Below, one piece after another: positions 10,069 through 58,331 of a stretch of DNA of 64,000 bases (position 1 is the first letter of the stretch; each line of letters begins with the position of its first letter). Origin of the DNA: Escherichia virus TH10; sequence record MT446388.1; one strand, 5' to 3'. A program made the translations under genes and the position numbers. The notes under the pieces were generated by a model. That model ran no database searches. It had not been told where the DNA came from and worked only from the letters and a program-made list of their open reading frames with translations.

Positions 10069-18081
<8,013 letters not shown>

Positions 18082-24047: not shown

Positions 24048-24563
24048 TTATTTAACCTCAAAAACTGGCTCAAGAGCCAATATAAAGTCTACACAGTCAT
24101 CTTCTTCATCCAGAATACCATCAAAGTTCTTAGGAACGAAGTCGAAGAGGCTCATAACAAAGCAGTCAGAAGTAACCCTGATAGTGCCTCCCATATTCTC
24201 TACAGTCAACACTGTACGGCTTTCTTTTACCTCTCTCAGAAGATTACTCACAAAGTCATCTAAGAAGTATTTCATCAGTGACTTAAAGCCTTTAGGGTAA
24301 TCTGTACCAGAGTATGTTTCAATCTGGGGCACAAGCTTAACATTTATACTAGTCTTTGTTAAGAACGTGCTAGAGAACATACTGTCAGGTAACTTACAAA
24401 CAGTCTTTCCAGTACCTTCATGTTCAATCTCAACAAAACCAGCTTCGTCACCACATGTAACTATTTTAAAAGATGCTTCATTCTCATACTGTGAAGCCAT
24501 AAACTTTTTAAGCATCTCTTTAAGGAAATCTGCATGAGCATCTTGTAAGTAGATATCAATCAT
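24048..24563 (-). CDS. hypothetical early protein
   Basis: 171-aa ORF in co-directional early cluster. Confidence 0.45.
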   Translation of the reverse strand: MIDIYLQDAHADFLKEMLKKFMASQYENEASFKIVTCGDEAGFVEIEHEGTGKTVCKLPDSMFSSTFLTKTSINVKLVPQIETYSGTDYPKGFKSLMKYFLDDFVSNLLREVKESRTVLTVENMGGTIRVTSDCFVMSLFDFVPKNFDGILDEEDDCVDFILALEPVFEVK

Positions 24564-24937: not shown

Positions 24938-25237
24938 TTAATCTGCCAACCTTAAATTAAAATTAACACCAAATTTTTCACAGACACCCAACATATACTC
25001 AAGGGAGACATTACCAGTGAGGTGGATTATGTTGGATACACGAGCCTGAGAGATACCACAAATTTTAGCAACTTGCTCTTGAGAAAGACCTCTGGATTTA
25101 ATCTCTCTCTTAAAACGATGTGCAACGAAATCTCTCATTTCGTCTACATCCATTGGACAAATATAACTCTCCATTTCAGCCTCTCTGTCAGCCTCCCAAT
25201 CATCTTGTGGAGCATAAGGGTCAAAAACCTCATTCAT
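24938..25237 (-). CDS. helix-turn-helix DNA-binding protein (start likely ATG 25237, 8-nt overlap with upstream gene)
   Basis: C-terminal LSQEQVAKICGISQARVSNI HTH-like segment. Confidence 0.45.
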   Translation of the reverse strand: MNEVFDPYAPQDDWEADREAEMESYICPMDVDEMRDFVAHRFKREIKSRGLSQEQVAKICGISQARVSNIIHLTGNVSLEYMLGVCEKFGVNFNLRLAD

Positions 25238-25442
25238 CTTTCTTCTTCCGTTTTCGTGAAGTGTCAATCAATGAATCTATGTTTGTAGCCCTAACCTTTT
25301 CACGTTCATCGTTAAGATAATCGTCAAGAGCCTTTTCAATCTGTGAATCATCCTGACAGATGACTGTAAAGACTGTAAAGCCGTCTGTATCGTCAATTAT
25401 CTTACCATAACCGCTTCTGGGATGTAACTTTTTAAGAGCCAT
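25230..25442 (-). CDS. hypothetical small protein
   Basis: 70-aa ORF with basic C-terminus, adjacent to stop of upstream gene. Confidence 0.4.
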   Translation of the reverse strand: MALKKLHPRSGYGKIIDDTDGFTVFTVICQDDSQIEKALDDYLNDEREKVRATNIDSLIDTSRKRKKKDE

Positions 25443-25871: not shown

Positions 25872-25900
25872 AAAATAAGCTATAACACCTGACTTGTCAA
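25872..25900 (-). promoter_or_regulatory. candidate sigma70 promoter for 25444..25827 operon
   Basis: minus-strand TTGACA (plus 25895-25900) with 17-bp spacer and weak -10 TATTTT. Confidence 0.3.
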
Positions 25901-25960
25901 CAGATTTTATAGCTTATTTGGCAGATTTTTTATAAGGCTACTGCCATCCTTCCAAACTAT

Positions 25961-26018
25961 ACCAAACCTAACCCCACCTAACCCCACCTAACCCTACCAC
26001 ACCAGACCTAGCCTAACC
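25961..26018. repeat. pentanucleotide-periodic array (NNACC)x12
   Basis: ACC/GCC at exact 5-bp phase from 25961 to 26018 (accaa accta acccc accta acccc accta accct accac accag accta gccta acc). Confidence 0.85.
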
Positions 26019-26020
26019 TT

Positions 26021-26054
26021 GTTAAAAGACCCTCTTAAAGACCTTTTAAAAAGG
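26021..26054. repeat. conserved box copy 1 (gttaaaagaccctcttaaagaccttttaaaaagg)
   Basis: Near-identical to copies at 26149-26186 and 27428-27465. Confidence 0.85.
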
Positions 26055-26086
26055 TAAGTCTCATTTTAATGTAGCTGAGACTAACT
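26055..26086 (-). other. hairpin HP1 copy A (agtctca-12 nt loop-tgagact)
   Basis: Inverted repeat identical to 27466-27496; on minus strand followed by a short T-run. Confidence 0.6.
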
Positions 26087-26092
26087 ACCCAT

Positions 26093-26150
26093 ACCAGACC
26101 CTACCTTACCAAACCAGACCTCACTCTACCCCACCATACCGTATACTACC
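26093..26150. repeat. pentanucleotide-periodic array (NNACC)x12
   Basis: CC at exact 5-bp phase 26094 to 26150 with two imperfect units. Confidence 0.85.
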
Positions 26151-26186
26151 TCATTAAAAGACCCTCTTAAAGACCTTTTAAAAAGG
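26149..26186. repeat. conserved box copy 2
   Basis: cctcattaaaagaccctcttaaagaccttttaaaaagg. Confidence 0.85.
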
Positions 26187-26203
26187 AGCCTCCGAAGAGG
26201 CTA
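26176..26203 (-). terminator. rho-independent terminator of 26214..27259 operon
   Basis: minus-strand stem agcctc-ttcg-gaggct followed by ctttttaaaa; 10 nt downstream of stop at 26214. Confidence 0.65.
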
Positions 26204-27262: not shown

Positions 27263-27357
27263 TTAGTTGATTGTTAAGTTGTTTGTAAAGAACCCTCAAC
27301 AGAAGACTCTTTAGAAACTTGGTAGATTTTTAACGTGGCTACTACCATCCACCCATA

Positions 27358-27429
27358 CCATACCGAACCTTACCTTACCAAACCAGACCGCGCCTTACCA
27401 AACCAGACCAAACATTACTTTACCCTACC
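27358..27429. repeat. pentanucleotide-periodic array (NNACC)x15
   Basis: CC at 27358-59, 63-64, 68-69 ... 27428-29 in constant 5-bp phase. Confidence 0.85.
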
Positions 27430-27465
27430 TCATTAAAAAACCCTCTTAAAGACCTTTTAAAAAGG
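27428..27465. repeat. conserved box copy 3
   Basis: cctcattaaaaaaccctcttaaagaccttttaaaaagg. Confidence 0.85.
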
Positions 27466-27496
27466 TAAGTCTCATTTTAATGTAGCTGAGACTAAC
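27466..27496 (-). other. hairpin HP1 copy B
   Basis: gtaagtctcattttaatgtagctgagactaac identical to 26055-26086. Confidence 0.6.
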
Positions 27497-27497
27497 T

Positions 27498-27595
27498 ACC
27501 CGCACTTTACCGCACCGGACCTTACCGGACCGCACATCACCGCACTAAACCAGACATCACATTACCTGACCACACCAAACCAAACATCACATTAC
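27498..27595. repeat. pentanucleotide-periodic array (NNNAC/NNACC)x20
   Basis: AC dinucleotide at every position ending in 4-5 and 9-0 from 27498 to 27595. Confidence 0.85.
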
Positions 27596-27623
27596 TTAAA
27601 AACCCTCTTAGAAGACTCTTAAG
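27591..27623. repeat. degenerate conserved box copy 4
   Basis: attacttaaaaaccctcttagaagactcttaag. Confidence 0.5.
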
Positions 27624-30226: not shown

Positions 30227-30742
30227 TCAACTTAGTTTTGCAAACTCTCCGTGGAGTTTAATAGCAGCTTCACAGTAAGCTTTATGGGCTTCTTCTTCCG
30301 TTGTGTATGTTCCTATATGTATAGTCTTGCCGTTATGGTTAATCTGGGCTATCCACTTACCAGACTTGCTTCTACTTGTACCTTTTAAGTTTTTTGATGT
30401 TCTAGGTTGTCTCCTATTAGACATGTTCTGTTCTTTTGTGGCCTCTCTTAGATTGTCCCAAGCGTTATTCAAACCATCTCCATCTTTGTGGTCAATGTGT
30501 TTGTCAGGCCACTTACCTGTCATCCAGAACCAAGCAATTCGGTGATTACCTGTCCTGTATCCTAAAATCTGTGTGTGCATATACACACCAGACCTTGTGC
30601 GCTTAATTGCTCCGGCTTGGCTTCCAATAACCACCCTACTACTATGTGGAGGTCTGCCAATCCATGTTAAGACCCCTGTTTCGGGGTCATAATCTAACCA
30701 AGATTTTAACTGTTCATGTGTGAATCCACAATCTCTCATCAA
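30227..30742 (-). CDS. HNH homing endonuclease with AP2-like C-terminal DNA-binding domain
   Basis: HIDHKDGDGLNNAWDNLREATKEQN HNH motif; C-terminal GTYTTEEEAHKAYCEAAIKLHGEFA; paralog of 53064..53555. Confidence 0.7.
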   Translation of the reverse strand: MMRDCGFTHEQLKSWLDYDPETGVLTWIGRPPHSSRVVIGSQAGAIKRTRSGVYMHTQILGYRTGNHRIAWFWMTGKWPDKHIDHKDGDGLNNAWDNLREATKEQNMSNRRQPRTSKNLKGTSRSKSGKWIAQINHNGKTIHIGTYTTEEEAHKAYCEAAIKLHGEFAKLS

Positions 30743-33468
30743 TGTACCTCATACCAGCTCTTACCAACCTTACCAGTACCAGTTACCAGTGTTTCTTTCT
30801 TAAGACCTAAGTTCTTAGAAGCTTGTCCATAATACCAGTCAGTAACCGCTTTCACCTCTGCCGTCATACTTTCTGGACATTCCCAACTCGTCTCATCGTG
30901 ATATGCGCAGAGTAAACGAGCACCAATAGCTGGTTTGCGACCATTCAACTTCATCAAGCCTTCGTCAATCATACGACGACAAGCAAGGTTAATCGCCTCA
31001 TTTTGAATCTGAGCCTCTGAACCCATCAAAAGATAGTTCAATAATTTGTGTGGAGATTTACACCACAACCAAGCTCCAGCAACCTTTACAAAACCACCTT
31101 TAGAGATTGCAGCGGTCTTACCAAACACCTCTTCAAGTGCCTTTTTAGTTGCTTTGTAGTCAGCTTCCAAGTTATCTAATAGTTTCTTAATCTTTGGCAA
31201 ACGCACAAAGTAAGTCTGTTTAGTTAATGCACCTTCCTGAGTAGTAGCTGCCTTAATAGTTTTAGCAAACTTCTCATCACCTGCACCGAACAGTAGTGCA
31301 TAGATACCATTCTTAGCTTTCTTACGACCTTTGCTAATCTCATGAAGAAGATTCTCATCCTGAGTAGCTCGACAAGTCAAGATATCCTGCTCATCATTCA
31401 AGCTAAAGTAAATACTGTTCAGTGTATGTGCATCAGTCCCTGAATAGACAACGTACAGGTCATTCTCAGAGTCATAGCGAAGGTACTTATCAATCTCTGG
31501 GTTTAGGTACTCATCAAAATGTTTGCAGTAATAGCGTCCATCTTCTTGACGAATGAACTCAATCTCTTCTTTACCTTGCGTTACCGCTTTGGTGAAGTCT
31601 TTATCACCCATAAAGTTACAAAGAAGAACTAGCTGGGCTGAGTTCATATCTACAGATACTACGTTGGTTCCCTCTTCACAAATCCACACTGCCCTCATTG
31701 GTTCCCCATAGACAGCAGCACCAGACGGTACGTTTACAATACCATATTGTGTCATACGTCCAGTTGAAGTACCAAACACCATTGCACCAGCACTAAGGCG
31801 ACCATCAGGACGAATCTGGTTCAACCAACCTTTTTCATCATCCTTTGAGTTCTCAATAGTTCTGCGTCTGTGCATCAAAGTGTAGTATTTAGCAATCTTC
31901 TGTCCAAGCTCACCTTCAATCGTATCATAAGATGATTCAGTAAGTTTTGGTGAAGTACGGATTAAGCAAGGCTCAAGCAAATCTGTGTATTTCTTCACAG
32001 ACCAGTTATGCTCGATGTACTGTACACCTTCATGTTCAACATAACTCAAACCACACCGCTCAATCATTTCCTGCCACTTAGGATGCTTTGTAATCATCTT
32101 TTTATTGTCTTTGAAACGACAAACTTTGACAGGGCGACCATCTGAGTCTTTCTTGTAATTCCAGTCATCTGGAATCCAACCAACTGATTTCAAGTAGTCT
32201 TTAACAACTGCTACCTGAGTCATACGAGAAACTTCAAACTCAATTGGTGTATATGGTGCATCAATCAATCCTGTGTAGCGACTTGACTCAAGTTCAAAGT
32301 GGTTAACAACATGGCTGTTATAGTACTTCACAGTTTTAACAGTTTTTACTGGCTTCCAGTCTTTGCATTTCTTACCAATCTTTGCATTCAACTCGTTGCA
32401 AATTGCACGGGCATCCTTCATTGCTACAAAGCCTTCCTTGTACTCTTCACCAGTTACAGAGTTGGTTGGTGTATAGCAATTTCTCTTTTCAATGTTAAAA
32501 ATCTTTGTAGTTGGCTTACCAAATGGCTTGATTTCGTATGTCTGCATCTCACCGTTACGTACCTGCTGACGATACTTTGTTTTAGGGTACTTGGTAATTC
32601 TCTTCAGTCCATCTGCATGACCGAATGTTTCAACATACTCATTCCAAGCTTTTGCAAACTCTTCTCCAGTGACTTTACCTTTGGTCTTAATAGTTGGAGG
32701 TAGATGTGGTTCAACCTCTGAAGCAAGCTCATTAGTCAACTTGTCAAGTTCCTTTACATGGAACTCCATAAGCTCTTTATCAGCTTTCCAGCCATTGATA
32801 GCTTGTTGACTCATCCAGAAAGATGTTTCTTTAGCTCGCATGTAGGTTTCATAAGTGTCTATGCCACACTTCTTAAGCTTGAGATATTCATTATCAAGTG
32901 CCCGTTTAGTTTTGGCGTTAATACGGATATCTTCTACAACACGAGTGAAGATTTCTGCATTCCACACACCCCAATGTTCAATCTCTGGTTTACGAACACC
33001 AACACGAGCACCCCATGCAGCCAAACCATGAGCACCTTTATAACCCTTTGGAGTTGGTCTATCCATCCACTGAACACGAGACTGGATAAGAGAATCCTGA
33101 AAGAAATTACTCCACGGTTTACACTTTGGATTATCAAAGTTCCATAAATCAGGTGCAATGTGATTGAAAACCCACCAGTCATAACCGAGGCCGTTATGGA
33201 TGCAAAGTCGTTTTGCCTTTAACGCAAACTCAACACCTTCACGTAAACCACCCTTGATGTACTTAGTGTACTTGTGACCGAGGATAGGCTCATCTGTAAA
33301 GACCCATACAGGTGGCTCTTCATCGTCAGATTTATAGTCTGCGAAAGCCATTACGTGCACTTTAGTGAACTCAAGGAGTAAACCATCAGTTTCTGTATCA
33401 CCAACTAAATGTAAGTTTTTAAAATCTACGTTTTCCATTTTTACTCCCTCTAAAATCATTAACCTCAT
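30739..33468 (-). CDS. DNA polymerase, family A, with 3'-5' exonuclease domain
   Basis: N-terminal exo I motif GDTETDGL; C-terminal Pol A motif C YHDE; 909 aa. Confidence 0.85.
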   Translation of the reverse strand: MRLMILEGVKMENVDFKNLHLVGDTETDGLLLEFTKVHVMAFADYKSDDEEPPVWVFTDEPILGHKYTKYIKGGLREGVEFALKAKRLCIHNGLGYDWWVFNHIAPDLWNFDNPKCKPWSNFFQDSLIQSRVQWMDRPTPKGYKGAHGLAAWGARVGVRKPEIEHWGVWNAEIFTRVVEDIRINAKTKRALDNEYLKLKKCGIDTYETYMRAKETSFWMSQQAINGWKADKELMEFHVKELDKLTNELASEVEPHLPPTIKTKGKVTGEEFAKAWNEYVETFGHADGLKRITKYPKTKYRQQVRNGEMQTYEIKPFGKPTTKIFNIEKRNCYTPTNSVTGEEYKEGFVAMKDARAICNELNAKIGKKCKDWKPVKTVKTVKYYNSHVVNHFELESSRYTGLIDAPYTPIEFEVSRMTQVAVVKDYLKSVGWIPDDWNYKKDSDGRPVKVCRFKDNKKMITKHPKWQEMIERCGLSYVEHEGVQYIEHNWSVKKYTDLLEPCLIRTSPKLTESSYDTIEGELGQKIAKYYTLMHRRRTIENSKDDEKGWLNQIRPDGRLSAGAMVFGTSTGRMTQYGIVNVPSGAAVYGEPMRAVWICEEGTNVVSVDMNSAQLVLLCNFMGDKDFTKAVTQGKEEIEFIRQEDGRYYCKHFDEYLNPEIDKYLRYDSENDLYVVYSGTDAHTLNSIYFSLNDEQDILTCRATQDENLLHEISKGRKKAKNGIYALLFGAGDEKFAKTIKAATTQEGALTKQTYFVRLPKIKKLLDNLEADYKATKKALEEVFGKTAAISKGGFVKVAGAWLWCKSPHKLLNYLLMGSEAQIQNEAINLACRRMIDEGLMKLNGRKPAIGARLLCAYHDETSWECPESMTAEVKAVTDWYYGQASKNLGLKKETLVTGTGKVGKSWYEVH

Positions 33469-33498
33469 ACATTACTGCAAAAAATTATAAAAAGCAAG

Positions 33499-33527
33499 TT
33501 GACAATGCACTTGACAAGGTGTTAATC
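33499..33527 (+). promoter_or_regulatory. sigma70-like promoter in divergent region (tandem TTGACA boxes)
   Basis: ttgaca 33499-33504 and 33511-33516; -10 candidate ttaatc 33522-33527. Confidence 0.4.
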
Positions 33528-33634
33528 TTTGCGAAGTGGGTTTTTACTTAAAAGGTTACTTAACAGTTTAACTATACAGATACTTTAAAACTCTTAAAAG
33601 ATTATTTAATAGCTTTTAAAAAGCTTTAAAGTAT

Positions 33635-33651
33635 AACGTATAGAATACGTT
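33635..33651. promoter_or_regulatory. 17-bp perfect palindrome (operator-like)
   Basis: aacgtat-aga-atacgtt. Confidence 0.5.
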
Positions 33652-33695
33652 AAGATAAAAGATTAAAACTTAATAGCTACTTAAAAGAGGCTTAC

Positions 33696-34118
33696 ATGCA
33701 GAAAATGTTTGTTCACCCAGACATAGCTGACTTTGTTAGAGCTTTGCAGAAGTTGGAAGAACTTGACATTGCTGCTCAACGGGAATATGCTCACCATCAC
33801 AGGAGAATGGTTGATATACAACATGAAATAGAGTTGTCTGAAGACTATGAAGATGACTTAAAATGCTCTGTATTTGAGCATATGAAAGATGTTGCTACAG
33901 CGAGACGTAAAGCTAAAGACACAGTTGCTTTACTAGATTCTCTTAAAAAGAGGTTGCAAAGTGGTACAGACCTGTGTAATCTAGCATCACTGATTAACGA
34001 TGTTGAAACTTCTTGGGATAGGCACTATTATCCACGTTCTGAAAAGACACTTGACTTTTCTTCATCCGAAAACTTAAAATGTTCTAGAAAGAAACTTAAC
34101 CAACTGAGAGAGAAATAA
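33696..34118 (+). CDS. hypothetical protein
   Basis: 140-aa ORF, first gene of rightward operon. Confidence 0.45.
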   Translation: MQKMFVHPDIADFVRALQKLEELDIAAQREYAHHHRRMVDIQHEIELSEDYEDDLKCSVFEHMKDVATARRKAKDTVALLDSLKKRLQSGTDLCNLASLINDVETSWDRHYYPRSEKTLDFSSSENLKCSRKKLNQLREK

Positions 34119-34119
34119 T

Positions 34120-34932
34120 ATGAATATCGATGTAGAAAAGATGCTTGAAGAGAAAGGTGTTGATGAAGCATTCTTAATCAATGCTGTAGAAAGCATGGCT
34201 ATGATTCTTCGTGGAAACAACTATACAGAACAGTTTATGCCAAAAAGCTATAACTTGCCTGAAGATAAAACTGATAACGGTGCTTTTGCAGAGCAGGTTA
34301 ATATGATGCTGTGCGACAAAACACTTGCTTTAGCATCTATCGTTGTAGGTGTTGATGCTCTTGCAGAGTTCATTTTTTATGAAATGCAGAAAAATGACTA
34401 TGTTGCCATGACCTCTGAAGAGAAAGACCTGCTACTACTCGCAGGTAATGATGAACTAATTAACCTGTTAATTTCATCAACGAGTGCTGTAATGGCTGCT
34501 CTTGAGAAGCGCATGGAAGAGAAACTTTCACGATATGAAAAACTTGATTGGGGCGTAGAAGAATTAAACCCACGAATCAAAGAGATTATCCAGCAAACTA
34601 AAGAGTCTTTGGAAAAAGCTGTTGAAAATGACTCTGTAGCTGATATAGAACCACTTCAGGTGAAAGTTGCACTGATGATTCCAGCTATCTCTACGATGAT
34701 GAATATCGTTGCACTAATCCAACTTTCACAGATGATGGGTGTGAGTGTTGAGTTCATTGAGGAGATGACTGGTGGCGTTAGTATGCAAGCAATCAATGAT
34801 GTTCTTATGAGCATCGGTGCATCAATTATTGAAGAGAAACTACGCATCAACTTTGGTGATGAGTTTGTGAAGCAAGTTGCAGAGATGGCTGAAAAAGAAT
34901 CTTCTCAAGTGACTGCTAAACAATTGCACTAA
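34120..34932 (+). CDS. hypothetical acidic protein
   Basis: 270-aa ORF, Glu/Asp-rich with few basic residues. Confidence 0.45.
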   Translation: MNIDVEKMLEEKGVDEAFLINAVESMAMILRGNNYTEQFMPKSYNLPEDKTDNGAFAEQVNMMLCDKTLALASIVVGVDALAEFIFYEMQKNDYVAMTSEEKDLLLLAGNDELINLLISSTSAVMAALEKRMEEKLSRYEKLDWGVEELNPRIKEIIQQTKESLEKAVENDSVADIEPLQVKVALMIPAISTMMNIVALIQLSQMMGVSVEFIEEMTGGVSMQAINDVLMSIGASIIEEKLRINFGDEFVKQVAEMAEKESSQVTAKQLH

Positions 34933-34948
34933 TCATTTATAAACTTAC

Positions 34949-34975
34949 AAGCCTCCTTAGTTGGGGGCTTTTTAG
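34949..34975 (+). terminator. terminator-like hairpin
   Basis: aagcctcc-ttagtt-gggggctt followed by ttt. Confidence 0.45.
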
Positions 34976-49341: not shown

Positions 49342-49505
49342 CCTTATGTAAAACTTGACAAGGTGGTGTGAGTCTTGATAGGCTTACATCACCTTTTTTA
49401 TTGGATGTTAGATATGGCAGAGAGCATCATTGGCCTGTTCATAGGTTCTGTCTTACTGGGGTTCTTTTTAGGACTCTCTTATTGTGAGTTGAGAGATAAG
49501 TTAAA

Positions 49506-53571: not shown

Positions 53572-55353
53572 ATGAGTAAGTCACTTTACGCAGTACCAGC
53601 AGGTCTTAATGCAGATGCTTACAAGGCATCACATATATATCAGTATCCAGATGCTACGCAATATCTTATGTTGAACCTGACACCACGCAGTGATAAATGG
53701 TTTAACAGCCCCTTAGCAATTGACGGTGTAGTGGCTTTTGGTATTCAACGTTTTGTTAAAGATTACTTGATAGACCACTGGAATGCCACTTTCTTTGAAC
53801 GTGATAAAAGAGAAGCCATTGATGAAATCTTAGAAGTCATGAATGGTGTTCTGGGTAAAGATGCTATCGGTCGAGAGCATTGGGAAGCACTTCACGACTT
53901 AGGTTATCTACCAGTTGAAGTATACGCTGTAGAAGAAGGCACAGTTGTTCCAATGCGTGTCCCGATGATTGTCTTTCAGAACACTGTTTCAGGTTTTCAT
54001 TGGGTAGCAGGTTATCTGGAAGATGCTTTCTCTGCTGAAATTTGGAAGGCTTGCACCATTGCAACTATTGCATTGCATTACAAACGCATCTGTAAGAAGT
54101 GGGCTGACCTTACTTGTGACAATGACTTACATTTACCTTATCAGTGCCATGATTTTGCTATGCGTGGTATGTCCGGCTTTACTGATGACGCATTTAACGC
54201 TGTAGGTCACTTAACCAGCTTTAAAGGGACTGATAGCTTCCCTGCTGTATACACGGCTAAACGAATCTATGGACAGTCCTACCCAATCTCTGATATTGGT
54301 AGTTCTGTACCAGCCACTGAGCACTCTGTAATGTGTGCAAACATTGCTTGGGAAGGTGGTAATGAGTTGATTGAAGAAGAAAGACGCTTTAAAGGTGAGT
54401 TACAAACCTTCCGTCGTTTCTTAACAGAAACTTACCCAACAGGTATTGCAAGCATTGTTTCAGATACTTATAACTTCTGGAGAACTGTGTCAGAAATCTT
54501 ACCAGCACTCCGCAAAGAAATTATGGAACGTGACGGCAAACTGGTAATTCGTCCTGACTCTGGAGACCCTGTACATATTGTCACAGGTTATAAAGCAATC
54601 CACTTAGAGTGTGCTAAGAAGGCTTATTACGAACACCTAAGCAAGCTGGAAGCCAGTGACACAATGTTGAATGCTGTCCTGAACATGAAGCTTGAGAACA
54701 TCAACTATGGTATTGCTGGATGGCTACTGTCAGAAGGCTACGAGATGGTTGTTGACAGAGAAGACTTTGAAGTTGCTGATACAGTGATGTTGAAAAATGC
54801 TTATATGGTTGGTTCTGCAAACGTTGTAACACGTCCTGTAGCTGAGATTGATGGAGCTATTAAGACACTGTACAACATCTTTGGGGGAACTATTAACTCT
54901 AAAGGCTTTAAAGTACTGGATGAACACATTGGCCTTATTTATGGTGACTCTATCACACTGGAACGTGCAAACGAAATCCTGAAGCGTCTGTATGAAATGG
55001 GTTTTGCAAGCTCTAACGTAGTGTTTGGCGTAGGCTCTTACACTTACCAGTACATGACTCGTGACACCTTTGCATTTGCTGTTAAAGCAACTCTTGCAAG
55101 CATTGGTGGTAAAGAGATTATGCTTGCAAAAGACCCTAAAACAGATAGTGGTGTTAAGAAGTCTGCTTTTGGTGGTGTAGCACCTATGTGGGATGGTGAT
55201 AAGTTGAAAGCTGTAGATGGCTATGGATTCCAGAGCTTTGCAGATGTACTTGAACATCCAGCTTGTGCTCTACGTTTAGTCTTTAGTGACTCTGAGCAGT
55301 ACGGTTACACATCTCTTGGTGATATTCGAAATAATATTGACAAGCAGCTTTAA
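53572..55353 (+). CDS. nadV: nicotinamide phosphoribosyltransferase-like protein (NAMPT family)
   Basis: N-terminal NADAYKASHIYQYPDATQY block matching the NAMPT start; 593 aa, longer than typical NAMPT. Confidence 0.7.
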   Translation: MSKSLYAVPAGLNADAYKASHIYQYPDATQYLMLNLTPRSDKWFNSPLAIDGVVAFGIQRFVKDYLIDHWNATFFERDKREAIDEILEVMNGVLGKDAIGREHWEALHDLGYLPVEVYAVEEGTVVPMRVPMIVFQNTVSGFHWVAGYLEDAFSAEIWKACTIATIALHYKRICKKWADLTCDNDLHLPYQCHDFAMRGMSGFTDDAFNAVGHLTSFKGTDSFPAVYTAKRIYGQSYPISDIGSSVPATEHSVMCANIAWEGGNELIEEERRFKGELQTFRRFLTETYPTGIASIVSDTYNFWRTVSEILPALRKEIMERDGKLVIRPDSGDPVHIVTGYKAIHLECAKKAYYEHLSKLEASDTMLNAVLNMKLENINYGIAGWLLSEGYEMVVDREDFEVADTVMLKNAYMVGSANVVTRPVAEIDGAIKTLYNIFGGTINSKGFKVLDEHIGLIYGDSITLERANEILKRLYEMGFASSNVVFGVGSYTYQYMTRDTFAFAVKATLASIGGKEIMLAKDPKTDSGVKKSAFGGVAPMWDGDKLKAVDGYGFQSFADVLEHPACALRLVFSDSEQYGYTSLGDIRNNIDKQL

Positions 55354-55366
55354 AAGTATATGATAA

Positions 55367-55390
55367 GAGGCTCCTACGGGAGCCTTTTTA
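55367..55390 (+). terminator. rho-independent terminator
   Basis: aggctcc-tacg-ggagcct-ttttt. Confidence 0.7.
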
Positions 55391-58295: not shown

Positions 58296-58301
58296 AGTGT
58301 T

Positions 58302-58331
58302 TGACAAGGGGCTTCAAAGCCCCTTAAAATG
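58302..58331 (+). promoter_or_regulatory. promoter-like element with hairpin in spacer (TTGACA-ggggcttcaaagcccc-TTAAAAT)
   Basis: ttgaca 58302-58307; 17-bp spacer is a perfect 6-bp-stem hairpin; -10-like ttaaaat. Confidence 0.4.

Follow-up and report, generated by a model that had tools for sequence, protein, structure and literature searches.

A probable divergent promoter region with tandem TTGACA boxes and a repeat-bearing leader beside the DNA polymerase gene of a Felix O1-type phage

Between the leftward DNA polymerase gene of Felix O1-type phages and the rightward genes that face it lies an A+T-rich gap, and the question raised by this locus is whether it serves as a promoter region, an operator, an origin of replication or some combination of these. 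Here, the gap is considered in a stretch of 64,000 nucleotides from Escherichia virus TH10 (MT446388.1), the whole of which is referred to as the window, and in which it occupies positions 33439–33695. An initial annotation had described it as a divergent control region with tandem TTGACA boxes and palindromes, a candidate operator for a dimeric helix-turn-helix (HTH) regulator and possibly an origin. The reading that we favor, and hold to be probable rather than secure, is that the gap is the divergent sigma-70 start region of the replication module, that its repeat-bearing leader acts after initiation, and that this promoter and leader module is present three times in the genome. Felix O1-type phages are the classic Salmonella typing phages and are among the phages most used in the therapy and biocontrol of E. 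coli and Salmonella; the Felix O1 genome paper, in which the same locus is the gap between genes 96 and 97, states that the timing of transcription is not understood (Whichard et al. 2010, PMC3185647). A module heading three transcription units would be a testable candidate for this missing transcription control.

A 551-base query around the gap is 99.5–99.8% identical to many Felixounavirus genomes (LF82P3, AYO145A and wV8-like phages), and by its sequence the window is the genome of a Felixounavirus, that is, a Felix O1-type phage. In AYO145A, the gap is flanked by the leftward DNA polymerase gene and, on the other side, by rightward genes for a 140-aa protein and a 270-aa protein, a terminator, and genes for a dNMP kinase and a primase/helicase. 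The gap was collected from each of 16 distinct Ounavirinae lineages, which include Felixounavirus, Suspvirus, Mooglevirus, one Yersinia phage, one Pectobacterium phage, Kolesnikvirus and seven uncultured relatives from Logan assemblies (adjacent protein 44–58% identical); a protein-guided scan of IMG/VR added no diversity, which the Logan contigs supplied. Against Suspvirus and Mooglevirus, identity is 81–98% in the promoter core (33489–33534) and 80–86% in the leader; it is 55–82% at 33439–33488 and 52–64% at the third codon positions of the downstream gene. Conservation of the leader is position-specific over 160 nt and on par with that of first and second codon positions, and the alignments indicate that the gap is under purifying selection across the Ounavirinae lineages.

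The two TTGACA boxes of the initial annotation are present where it placed them, at 33499–33504 and 33511–33516, 12 bp apart from start to start, as is every other motif that it listed. The boxes alone prove nothing, because the TTGACA hexamer is not enriched in the window (66 observed versus 69 expected). A rightward TTGACA-N17/18-TAnnnT, often with an upstream TG, is found 175–205 nt 5' of the ATG in all 16 lineages, including genera whose gaps cannot be aligned. The description of the gap as a divergent control region is borne out by this rightward sigma-70-type promoter and by a candidate leftward one back-to-back with it. The elements assigned to the rightward promoter, P_R, are as follows.

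33479–33494, plus strand: A-rich UP-like element AAAAAATTATAAAAAG, within which AAAAAGCAAG is invariant; A-tracts occur in both paralogous promoters
33499–33504, plus strand: TTGACA box 1, the predicted −35 box of P_R, with six of six matches, present in 16 of 16 lineages and within the promoter annotated in AYO145A
33509–33521, plus strand: ACTTGACAAGGTG with TTGACA box 2 (33511–33516), within the P_R spacer and invariant in three genera
33520–33528, plus strand: extended −10 element TGtTAATCT, with TG at 33520–33521 and TAATCT 18 nt from box 1
33533–33546, plus strand: initial transcribed sequence GAAGTGGGTTTTTA, near-invariant, with a predicted start at about 33535

It is box 1 with which the single TTGACA of the distant genera aligns. 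The −10 hexamer TAATCT has three of six matches to TATAAT, and the hexamers of relatives are TAATGT, TAGGCT, TACGAT, TATCGT or TACATT at a spacing of 17–18 nt, with a TGnTAnnnT equivalent of the extended −10 element in YenP778 and Arno162. Upstream, AAAAAG at −45 to −40 fits the consensus of the proximal UP subsite. A start of P_R transcription near 33535, as predicted, would leave a leader of about 160 nt; the GAAGT of the initial transcribed sequence recurs in YenP778, L053 and L054. In the Felix O1 paper, divergent promoters are assumed for the space that separates the polymerase gene from gene 97, although no sigma-70-like sequence is said to have been found there (PMC3185647), and the GenBank record of AYO145A (KR014248) marks as a promoter the TTGACA-N18-TAATCT that corresponds to 33499–33528 of the window. 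The tandem boxes, repeat leader, hairpin and paralogous copies described here go unmentioned in both sources.

The second box is the unusual part of this promoter. Its 12-bp distance from the first is kept in lineages L056 and L057 despite a different inter-box sequence, and its 11-mer is also present at the two other module promoters, at 49355 and at 30230. Judged from these comparisons, the tandem boxes are a conserved feature of the promoter, and the second box is clearly under selection; in a standard promoter, a box in that place has no role. A second promoter that would use box 2 as its −35 element was considered and rejected, as no −10-like hexamer lies 16–18 nt downstream of it in any of the three modules.

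The leftward side of the gap, which would carry the promoter P_L of the polymerase gene, is described by the following features.

33436–33438, minus strand: most likely start codon of the polymerase gene, annotated as the start in phage Mushroom and adjoined by a ribosome-binding site
33444–33450, minus strand: polymerase ribosome-binding site GAGGGAG (GAGGGAG-N5-ATG), annotated in Mushroom and Mijalis and invariant in the alignment
33469–33474, minus strand: candidate −10 element TAATGT of P_L, whose T1, A2 and T6 are invariant amid a variable stretch
33492–33497, minus strand: candidate −35 element TTGCTT of P_L, invariant and 1 bp from the rightward −35 box

In six lineages of the window's clade, TTGCTT-N17-TAnnnT keeps a fixed spacing while the sequence of its spacer drifts, and in the ten more distant lineages the best leftward promoter is likewise back-to-back with the rightward one, with 1–5 bp between the two −35 boxes. 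Two other leftward candidates, a perfect minus-strand TATAAT (33489..33484) and the leftward promoter marked in AYO145A, are not conserved outside Felixounavirus and were set aside. The initial annotation had drawn the gap at 33469–33695, of which the right end stands and the left end does not. The first ATG of the polymerase open reading frame (ORF), at 33468, is in frame and has no ribosome-binding site; since the ATG at 33438 has a strong one and is the annotated start in Mushroom, and since 1-nt indels occur among relatives within 33439–33468, the non-coding stretch is taken to be 33439–33695 (257 bp).

Downstream of P_R, the leader is occupied for nearly its entire length by a repeated motif, which, with the structures that accompany it, is laid out as follows.

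33547–33687, plus strand: array of nine same-strand T[TA][TA]A[ACT]AG motifs, with arrays in 16 of 16 lineages
33548, 33560, 33573, 33594, 33606, 33617, 33625, 33670 and 33681, plus strand: starts of the nine motifs, spaced mostly by 11–13 nt
33611–33625, no strand assigned: near-palindrome AGCTTTTAAAAAGCT, part of the motif array and almost invariant
33635–33651, plus strand: hairpin with a 7-bp stem and the 3-nt loop AGA, pairing kept
33685–33690, plus strand: ribosome-binding site AAGAGG of the first rightward gene (ATG at 33696), annotated in Mushroom

Nine plus-strand copies stand in the 161-nt leader, versus 1.2 ± 1.0 in simulations with the leader's own dinucleotide composition (0 of 3,000 runs reached nine), and the leader is the densest cluster of the motif in the 64 kb, with 10 copies per 200 nt versus at most 6 in simulated windows. 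The three CTTAAAAG repeats to which the initial annotation had drawn attention, at 33547, 33593 and 33680, all belong to this array; CTTAAAAG occurs 15 times in the window versus 5.2 expected. Across the lineages, 61% of 82 spacings between neighboring copies are 10–14 nt. Felixounavirus has mostly TTAAAAG, and the Yersinia, Pectobacterium and uncultured lineages have mostly TTAACAG or TAAACAG, with fixed C and G flanks; even between genera whose gaps cannot be aligned, the spacing is retained. In most genera, the ribosome-binding site is overlapped by the final repeat, which in Erwinia phages lies about 54 nt from the ATG. The restriction of the repeats to one strand, that of the transcribed leader, their regular spacing, their fixed C/G flanks and their reach into the ribosome-binding site would suit an element that acts at the level of the transcript or of the elongation complex. 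The leader also coincides with 33540–33689, which has the lowest duplex stability of any 150-bp stretch in the 64 kb (79% A+T, 4.7 sd from the mean), and is weakly structured overall, with folding z-scores of −1.9 and −1.1 for the two strands; an Rfam scan of 33300–33900 at permissive thresholds gave chance-level matches only.

The perfect 17-bp palindrome AACGTAT-AGA-ATACGTT at 33635–33651, which lies in what had been proposed as an operator, extends to arms of 8 nt (33634–33652) and has no close relative elsewhere in the window. All cells of its stem are paired (100%) across seven distinct sequences, with the states AACGTAT/ATACGTT, TACGTAT/ATACGTA and TATGTAT/ATACATA, such that compensatory substitutions affect two of the seven pairs (AU to UA and CG to UA). 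Only 3 of 500 shuffles do equally well, slid partners lose pairing, and consensus folding of the leader gives covariation support for this small hairpin only. The near-palindrome AGCTTTTAAAAAGCT, also present as annotated, is almost invariant and therefore holds no covariation information. An RNA hairpin fits the 17-bp palindrome better than a shared protein site does, because of the compensatory changes, its uniqueness in the window, its position about 100 nt downstream of the predicted start and the unrelated palindromes of the paralogs; 33635–33651 is thus, as judged from these comparisons, most likely an RNA hairpin in the leader.

The module is not confined to this gap. A nhmmer profile of the promoter and leader gave two more matches in AYO145A, both outside the part of that genome that the window covers.

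AYO145A 24190–24333: second copy, in the divergent gap of Felix O1 genes 40/41 (nhmmer E = 7e-8)
AYO145A 13441–13547: third copy, ahead of orf026 (nhmmer E = 5e-5)

The fuller module regions in AYO145A (locus L046) are 24186–24350, ahead of orf045, and 13441–13640, ahead of orf026, and the second copy precedes the orf045/tRNA/structural unit. Both paralogs have an A-tract, TTGACA boxes 12–13 bp apart with the second box in the spacer, TAnnnT at a distance of 17 nt from the first of them, a leader beginning with CTTAAAAGG or CTAAAAGG, further repeats, a hairpin of their own and a ribosome-binding site. Their hairpins are unrelated in sequence (AGATATC...GATATCT or GGGAGG...CCTCCC), and neither copy is exceptionally A+T-rich. 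Suspvirus and Mooglevirus retain the tandem boxes of the second gap, with differing inter-box bases. Furthermore, Pectobacterium phages have TTAACAG-type repeats in both leaders, so that within one genus the motif variant has changed in parallel in two leaders. Reverse transcription PCR in Felix O1 placed ORFs 41, 42 and 96–99 in one class with maximal expression at 25 min (PMC3185647); for ORFs 96–99, this shows transcription only. Since there are three copies, with differing hairpins and covariation of RNA type, the gap is a member of a promoter/leader class, and neither a unique origin nor a single-palindrome operator is likely.

On the favored reading, host RNA polymerase with sigma-70 would start both transcripts of the replication module. 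The strong promoter P_R, with its A-rich upstream element, TTGACA at 33499, 18-nt spacer and extended −10 element, would initiate near 33535, and the weaker P_L (TTGCTT-N17-TAATGT), back-to-back with it, would serve the polymerase gene. The rightward transcript would begin with an untranslated leader of about 160 nt that contains about nine phased copies of (C)TTAAnAG, the small hairpin and the ribosome-binding site, and this leader would act after initiation, either in the form of RNA or through the non-template strand of the elongation complex. Some factor would recognize and bind the repeats, and its loading may let RNA polymerase pass the intrinsic terminators within the units, in the manner of a nut or put site. 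The last step, in which the leader is a factor-loading site that promotes terminator read-through, is proposed only tentatively. Read-through is favored because the terminator at 34950–34974 is followed by no strong promoter and because the Felix O1 paper leaves unexplained how transcription passes the many terminators (PMC3185647).

The lambda nutL and nutR sites offer a partial model for such a step, in that they too are cis elements in the leader just 3' of early promoters, with a short linear motif followed by a hairpin, and the units considered here contain internal terminators. The motif CTCTTAAAAG resembles the boxA region of nutL, CGCTCTTAAAAATTAA, and the resemblance of CTCTTAAAAG and CTTAACAG to the boxA class (CGCTCTTTA / GCTCTTTAACAA) is only partial. 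Nine repeats, however, contrast with a single boxA, and the hairpin, with its A/U-rich stem and a loop of 3 nt (AGA, or AAC in Mooglevirus), is unlike boxB with its GAAAA pentaloop; the purine-rich pentaloop that defines boxB is thus not present in the hairpin at 33635–33651.

Several observations weigh against the favored reading as a whole or against its later steps. To our knowledge, no antitermination site comparable to an array of nine repeats has been described. No counterpart of N, Q or RfaH was identified, the small neighboring proteins having no family assignment, and neither the searches nor the models gave a functional clue to the two downstream proteins. The position of the last repeat on the ribosome-binding site suits translational control at least equally well, and the orientation and position of the repeats suit a reading at the level of DNA equally. 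The consensus fit of P_L is weak in the window's clade (6 of 12), and other candidates score similarly by script. Finally, no mapped transcription start for any Felix O1-type phage was found in the literature searched.

Read-through is preferred among the possible roles of the leader, and a translational operator like that of T4 gene 32 is nearly as plausible, if still unlikely when judged by itself. Such an operator would work through an RNA-binding protein that coats the A/U-rich repeats from a structure upstream down to the ribosome-binding site and so represses translation, as T4 gp32 does on its own UUAAA-repeat leader and RegA on several mRNAs, and three leaders with one motif would suit a single repressor with several targets. 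The operator of T4 gene 32 is formed by UUAAA/UAAA repeats, in an A/U-rich leader that is unstructured and continues into the ribosome-binding site, together with a structured element upstream of them (PMC535899), and the leader described here likewise has a structured element, nine A/U-rich repeats on the mRNA strand, predicted to be mostly unpaired, and a last repeat that overlaps AAGAGG, as it does the ribosome-binding site in most genera. It differs, however, in its length (about 150 nt versus about 70) and in its fixed C and G flanks; the array reaches 150 nt 5' of the start codon, far beyond what occlusion of a ribosome-binding site needs, and the distance of about 54 nt in Erwinia phages also counts against it. 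That the downstream genes might encode single-strand-binding proteins, as gene 32 does, was considered and rejected: neither product resembles such a protein, and both models are helical with no OB fold, that of the 270-aa protein being poor. A plainer possibility, which we rate lower still, is a 5' untranslated region (UTR) for high expression, in which the repeats bind ribosomal protein S1 and so enhance translation or stabilize the mRNA, and the hairpin protects the message from nucleases. The composition of the leader, its lack of stable structure (folding z-score −1.9), the want of any Rfam family match and the features of promoter strength, which suit genes needed in quantity, all agree with this. 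A generic A/U-rich enhancer, however, would need neither position-specific conservation over 160 nt, nor fixed C/G flanks and a regular spacing of 11–13 nt across non-alignable genera, nor a parallel change of motif variant in two leaders of a single genus, and it is disfavored for these reasons.

The remaining alternatives act on DNA, and we regard both as improbable. As a transcription-activated origin, the gap would have a promoter that fires into an easily melted A+T-rich element, so that the transcript or the opened duplex primes replication, with the repeats as iteron-like sites. T4 oriF and oriG and the primary origin of T7 consist of a promoter followed by an A+T-rich unwinding element, and here too a strong promoter directly precedes the most easily melted DNA of the region, between the polymerase and primase/helicase genes, with repeats phased at about one helical turn. 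The cumulative GC skew also has its minimum at the gap, but the skew follows the direction of transcription throughout the window, so the minimum adds nothing independent and was rejected as evidence. In contrast to the T4 and T7 origins, there are three paralogous copies, of which the other two are not exceptionally A+T-rich, and all repeats lie within the transcribed leader, continuing into the ribosome-binding site; moreover, they are units of 7–8 nt rather than iterons of 17–22 bp, and the hairpin covaries in the manner of RNA. Scans of the gap for host-factor consensus sites (IHF, DnaA, Fis, CRP, GATC and the oriC 13-mer) found none. The threefold module and the absence of DnaA, IHF and Fis sites weaken the case for an origin; three copies would still allow one, since T4 has several origins, and the reading keeps some standing because the gap holds the most easily melted DNA of the window. 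No origin mapping or transcriptomic study of Felix O1-type phages was found in the literature searched, and the portion covered by the search of the knockout-library paper on Bas63, a Felixounavirus, contains no statement on the gap. As a repressor operator, the gap would have the 17-bp palindrome, or TTGACAA-N5-TTGACAA, or both, bind a dimeric repressor that shuts off early transcription, for example the HTH protein encoded at 24938–25267. That protein is a genuine member of the HTH_3 family, the palindrome has the geometry of an operator (17 bp, half-sites about 10 bp apart), and the conserved box 2 lies in a spacer, where it has no standard role in a promoter and where a bound protein would block RNA polymerase. 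Nothing links the HTH protein to the DNA of the gap, however, and the claim for the palindrome was not upheld: it lies about 100 nt 3' of the predicted start, occurs once in the window, is replaced by different palindromes at the equivalent place in the paralogous modules, and undergoes substitutions that preserve pairing. In addition, the tandem-box core is also present in contigs from unrelated phages, for which a common repressor is improbable.

This last point comes from a search of IMG/VR with TTGACA-N6-TTGACAAGGTG, which gave matches beyond the Ounavirinae at A+T-rich non-coding sites, namely in loci L096, L079, L095, L105 and L134 (for example, L096:3671–3693, minus strand), in L059:1807–1829 and in L091. 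These sites share the order of the design, with an A-tract, tandem boxes, AGGTG and TAnnnT, and the contigs share the core only, without the repeat leader. In one group of contigs, the flanks match uvsW, gp55 and gp47 of T4-like cyanophages, and 28 of 29 positions are identical to the promoter of the second gap of Felixounavirus. In another, the flanks are about 72% identical to Clostridium phages (Clostridium phage CS266P4). The core was found in no cultured phage outside the Ounavirinae in the phage collection. The shared core may reflect convergence, or it may be a mobile cassette comparable to the PeSL cassettes of T4-type phages, which likewise repeat near-consensus sigma-70 early promoters within one genome (PMC2839356, PMC4122927) and would, as mobile regulatory cassettes, be expected in unrelated phages. 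The tandem −35 boxes and the long repeat leader, however, fall outside the definition of PeSL, and no stem-loop or terminator was found upstream of 33499. Elsewhere in the window, PeSL-like composites in which promoter-like hexamers are fused to terminator hairpins occur at 49353–49395, 58301–58330 and 55337–55390; ACTTGACAAGGTG at 49353 also supplies the 5' arm of a terminator stem that is 16 bp long, and the spacer of TTGACA-N18-TAAAAT at 58301 contains a hairpin.

Host-type divergent early promoters are a known kind of element. The combination of tandem −35 boxes with a phased repeat leader, a hairpin and three paralogs appears to be undescribed in the literature searched, in which the 11-mer TTGACAAGGTG occurs in no phage paper. 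It is possible, although we consider it doubtful, that the leaders of the three Ounavirinae units represent a new class of cis element, through which a phage or host factor would modify the elongating polymerase, as in terminator read-through, or control several mRNAs together, and that the tandem-TTGACA promoter is a distinct design that arose repeatedly, or spread, among phages of enterobacteria, cyanobacteria and clostridia. The conserved repeat suggests that there is a factor to be found, and the tandem −35 design in unrelated phage contigs may inform how promoters for the primary sigma factor can be built. For phage engineering, the module marks DNA that should not be disrupted and offers a compact and strong promoter and leader.

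The rightward unit itself is made up as follows.

33696–34932, plus strand: two coupled genes after the leader, for the 140-aa protein (33696–34118) and the 270-aa protein (34120–34932)
34950–34974, plus strand: intrinsic terminator AGCCTCC-TTAGTT-GGGGGCT-TTTTT, annotated as a terminator in AYO145A

Between this terminator and the genes for the dNMP kinase and the primase/helicase, no strong promoter was found. The model of the 140-aa protein is good (pLDDT 84) and shows a helical hairpin of some length, for which no fold match was significant, and the model of the 270-aa protein, all-helical, is poor (pLDDT 46); searches of Pfam, PHROGs and PDB sequences with the downstream proteins were uninformative. 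The 270-aa protein has the database label 'minor tail protein', yet it is located in the replication module, and the label looks like annotation drift. The protein evolves fast, with 41% identity between Felixounavirus and Suspvirus, and the identity of the leader upstream of it exceeds 80%. On the other side of the gap, directly downstream of the polymerase gene, the window has an ORF for a homing endonuclease with HNH_3 and AP2 domains (30227–30742, minus strand), which is absent from this position in AYO145A; in Erwinia phages, an HNH gene lies between the polymerase gene and the gap.

Units related to those of the leader are also found in other places. Intergenic blocks of C/A-rich short-period repeats, with ACCAAACC-like units and terminator-like hairpins, lie at 25952–26190 and 27353–27600 of the window; read on the minus strand, they follow sigma-70-like promoters at 25900 and 27686. 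They contain a conserved 39-nt box, ACCTnnTTAAAAGACCCTCTTAAAGACCTTTTAAAAAGG, which shares TTAAAAG and CTTAAAG units with the leader, and they are probably the repeat blocks to which the initial annotation had likened the repeats of the gap. In addition, AYO145A (L046) has, outside the window, about 1.5 kb without an annotated gene between convergent terminators (about 14880–16430), an A+T-rich region with several TTAAnAG-type clusters on both strands that may adjoin the physical ends of the genome.

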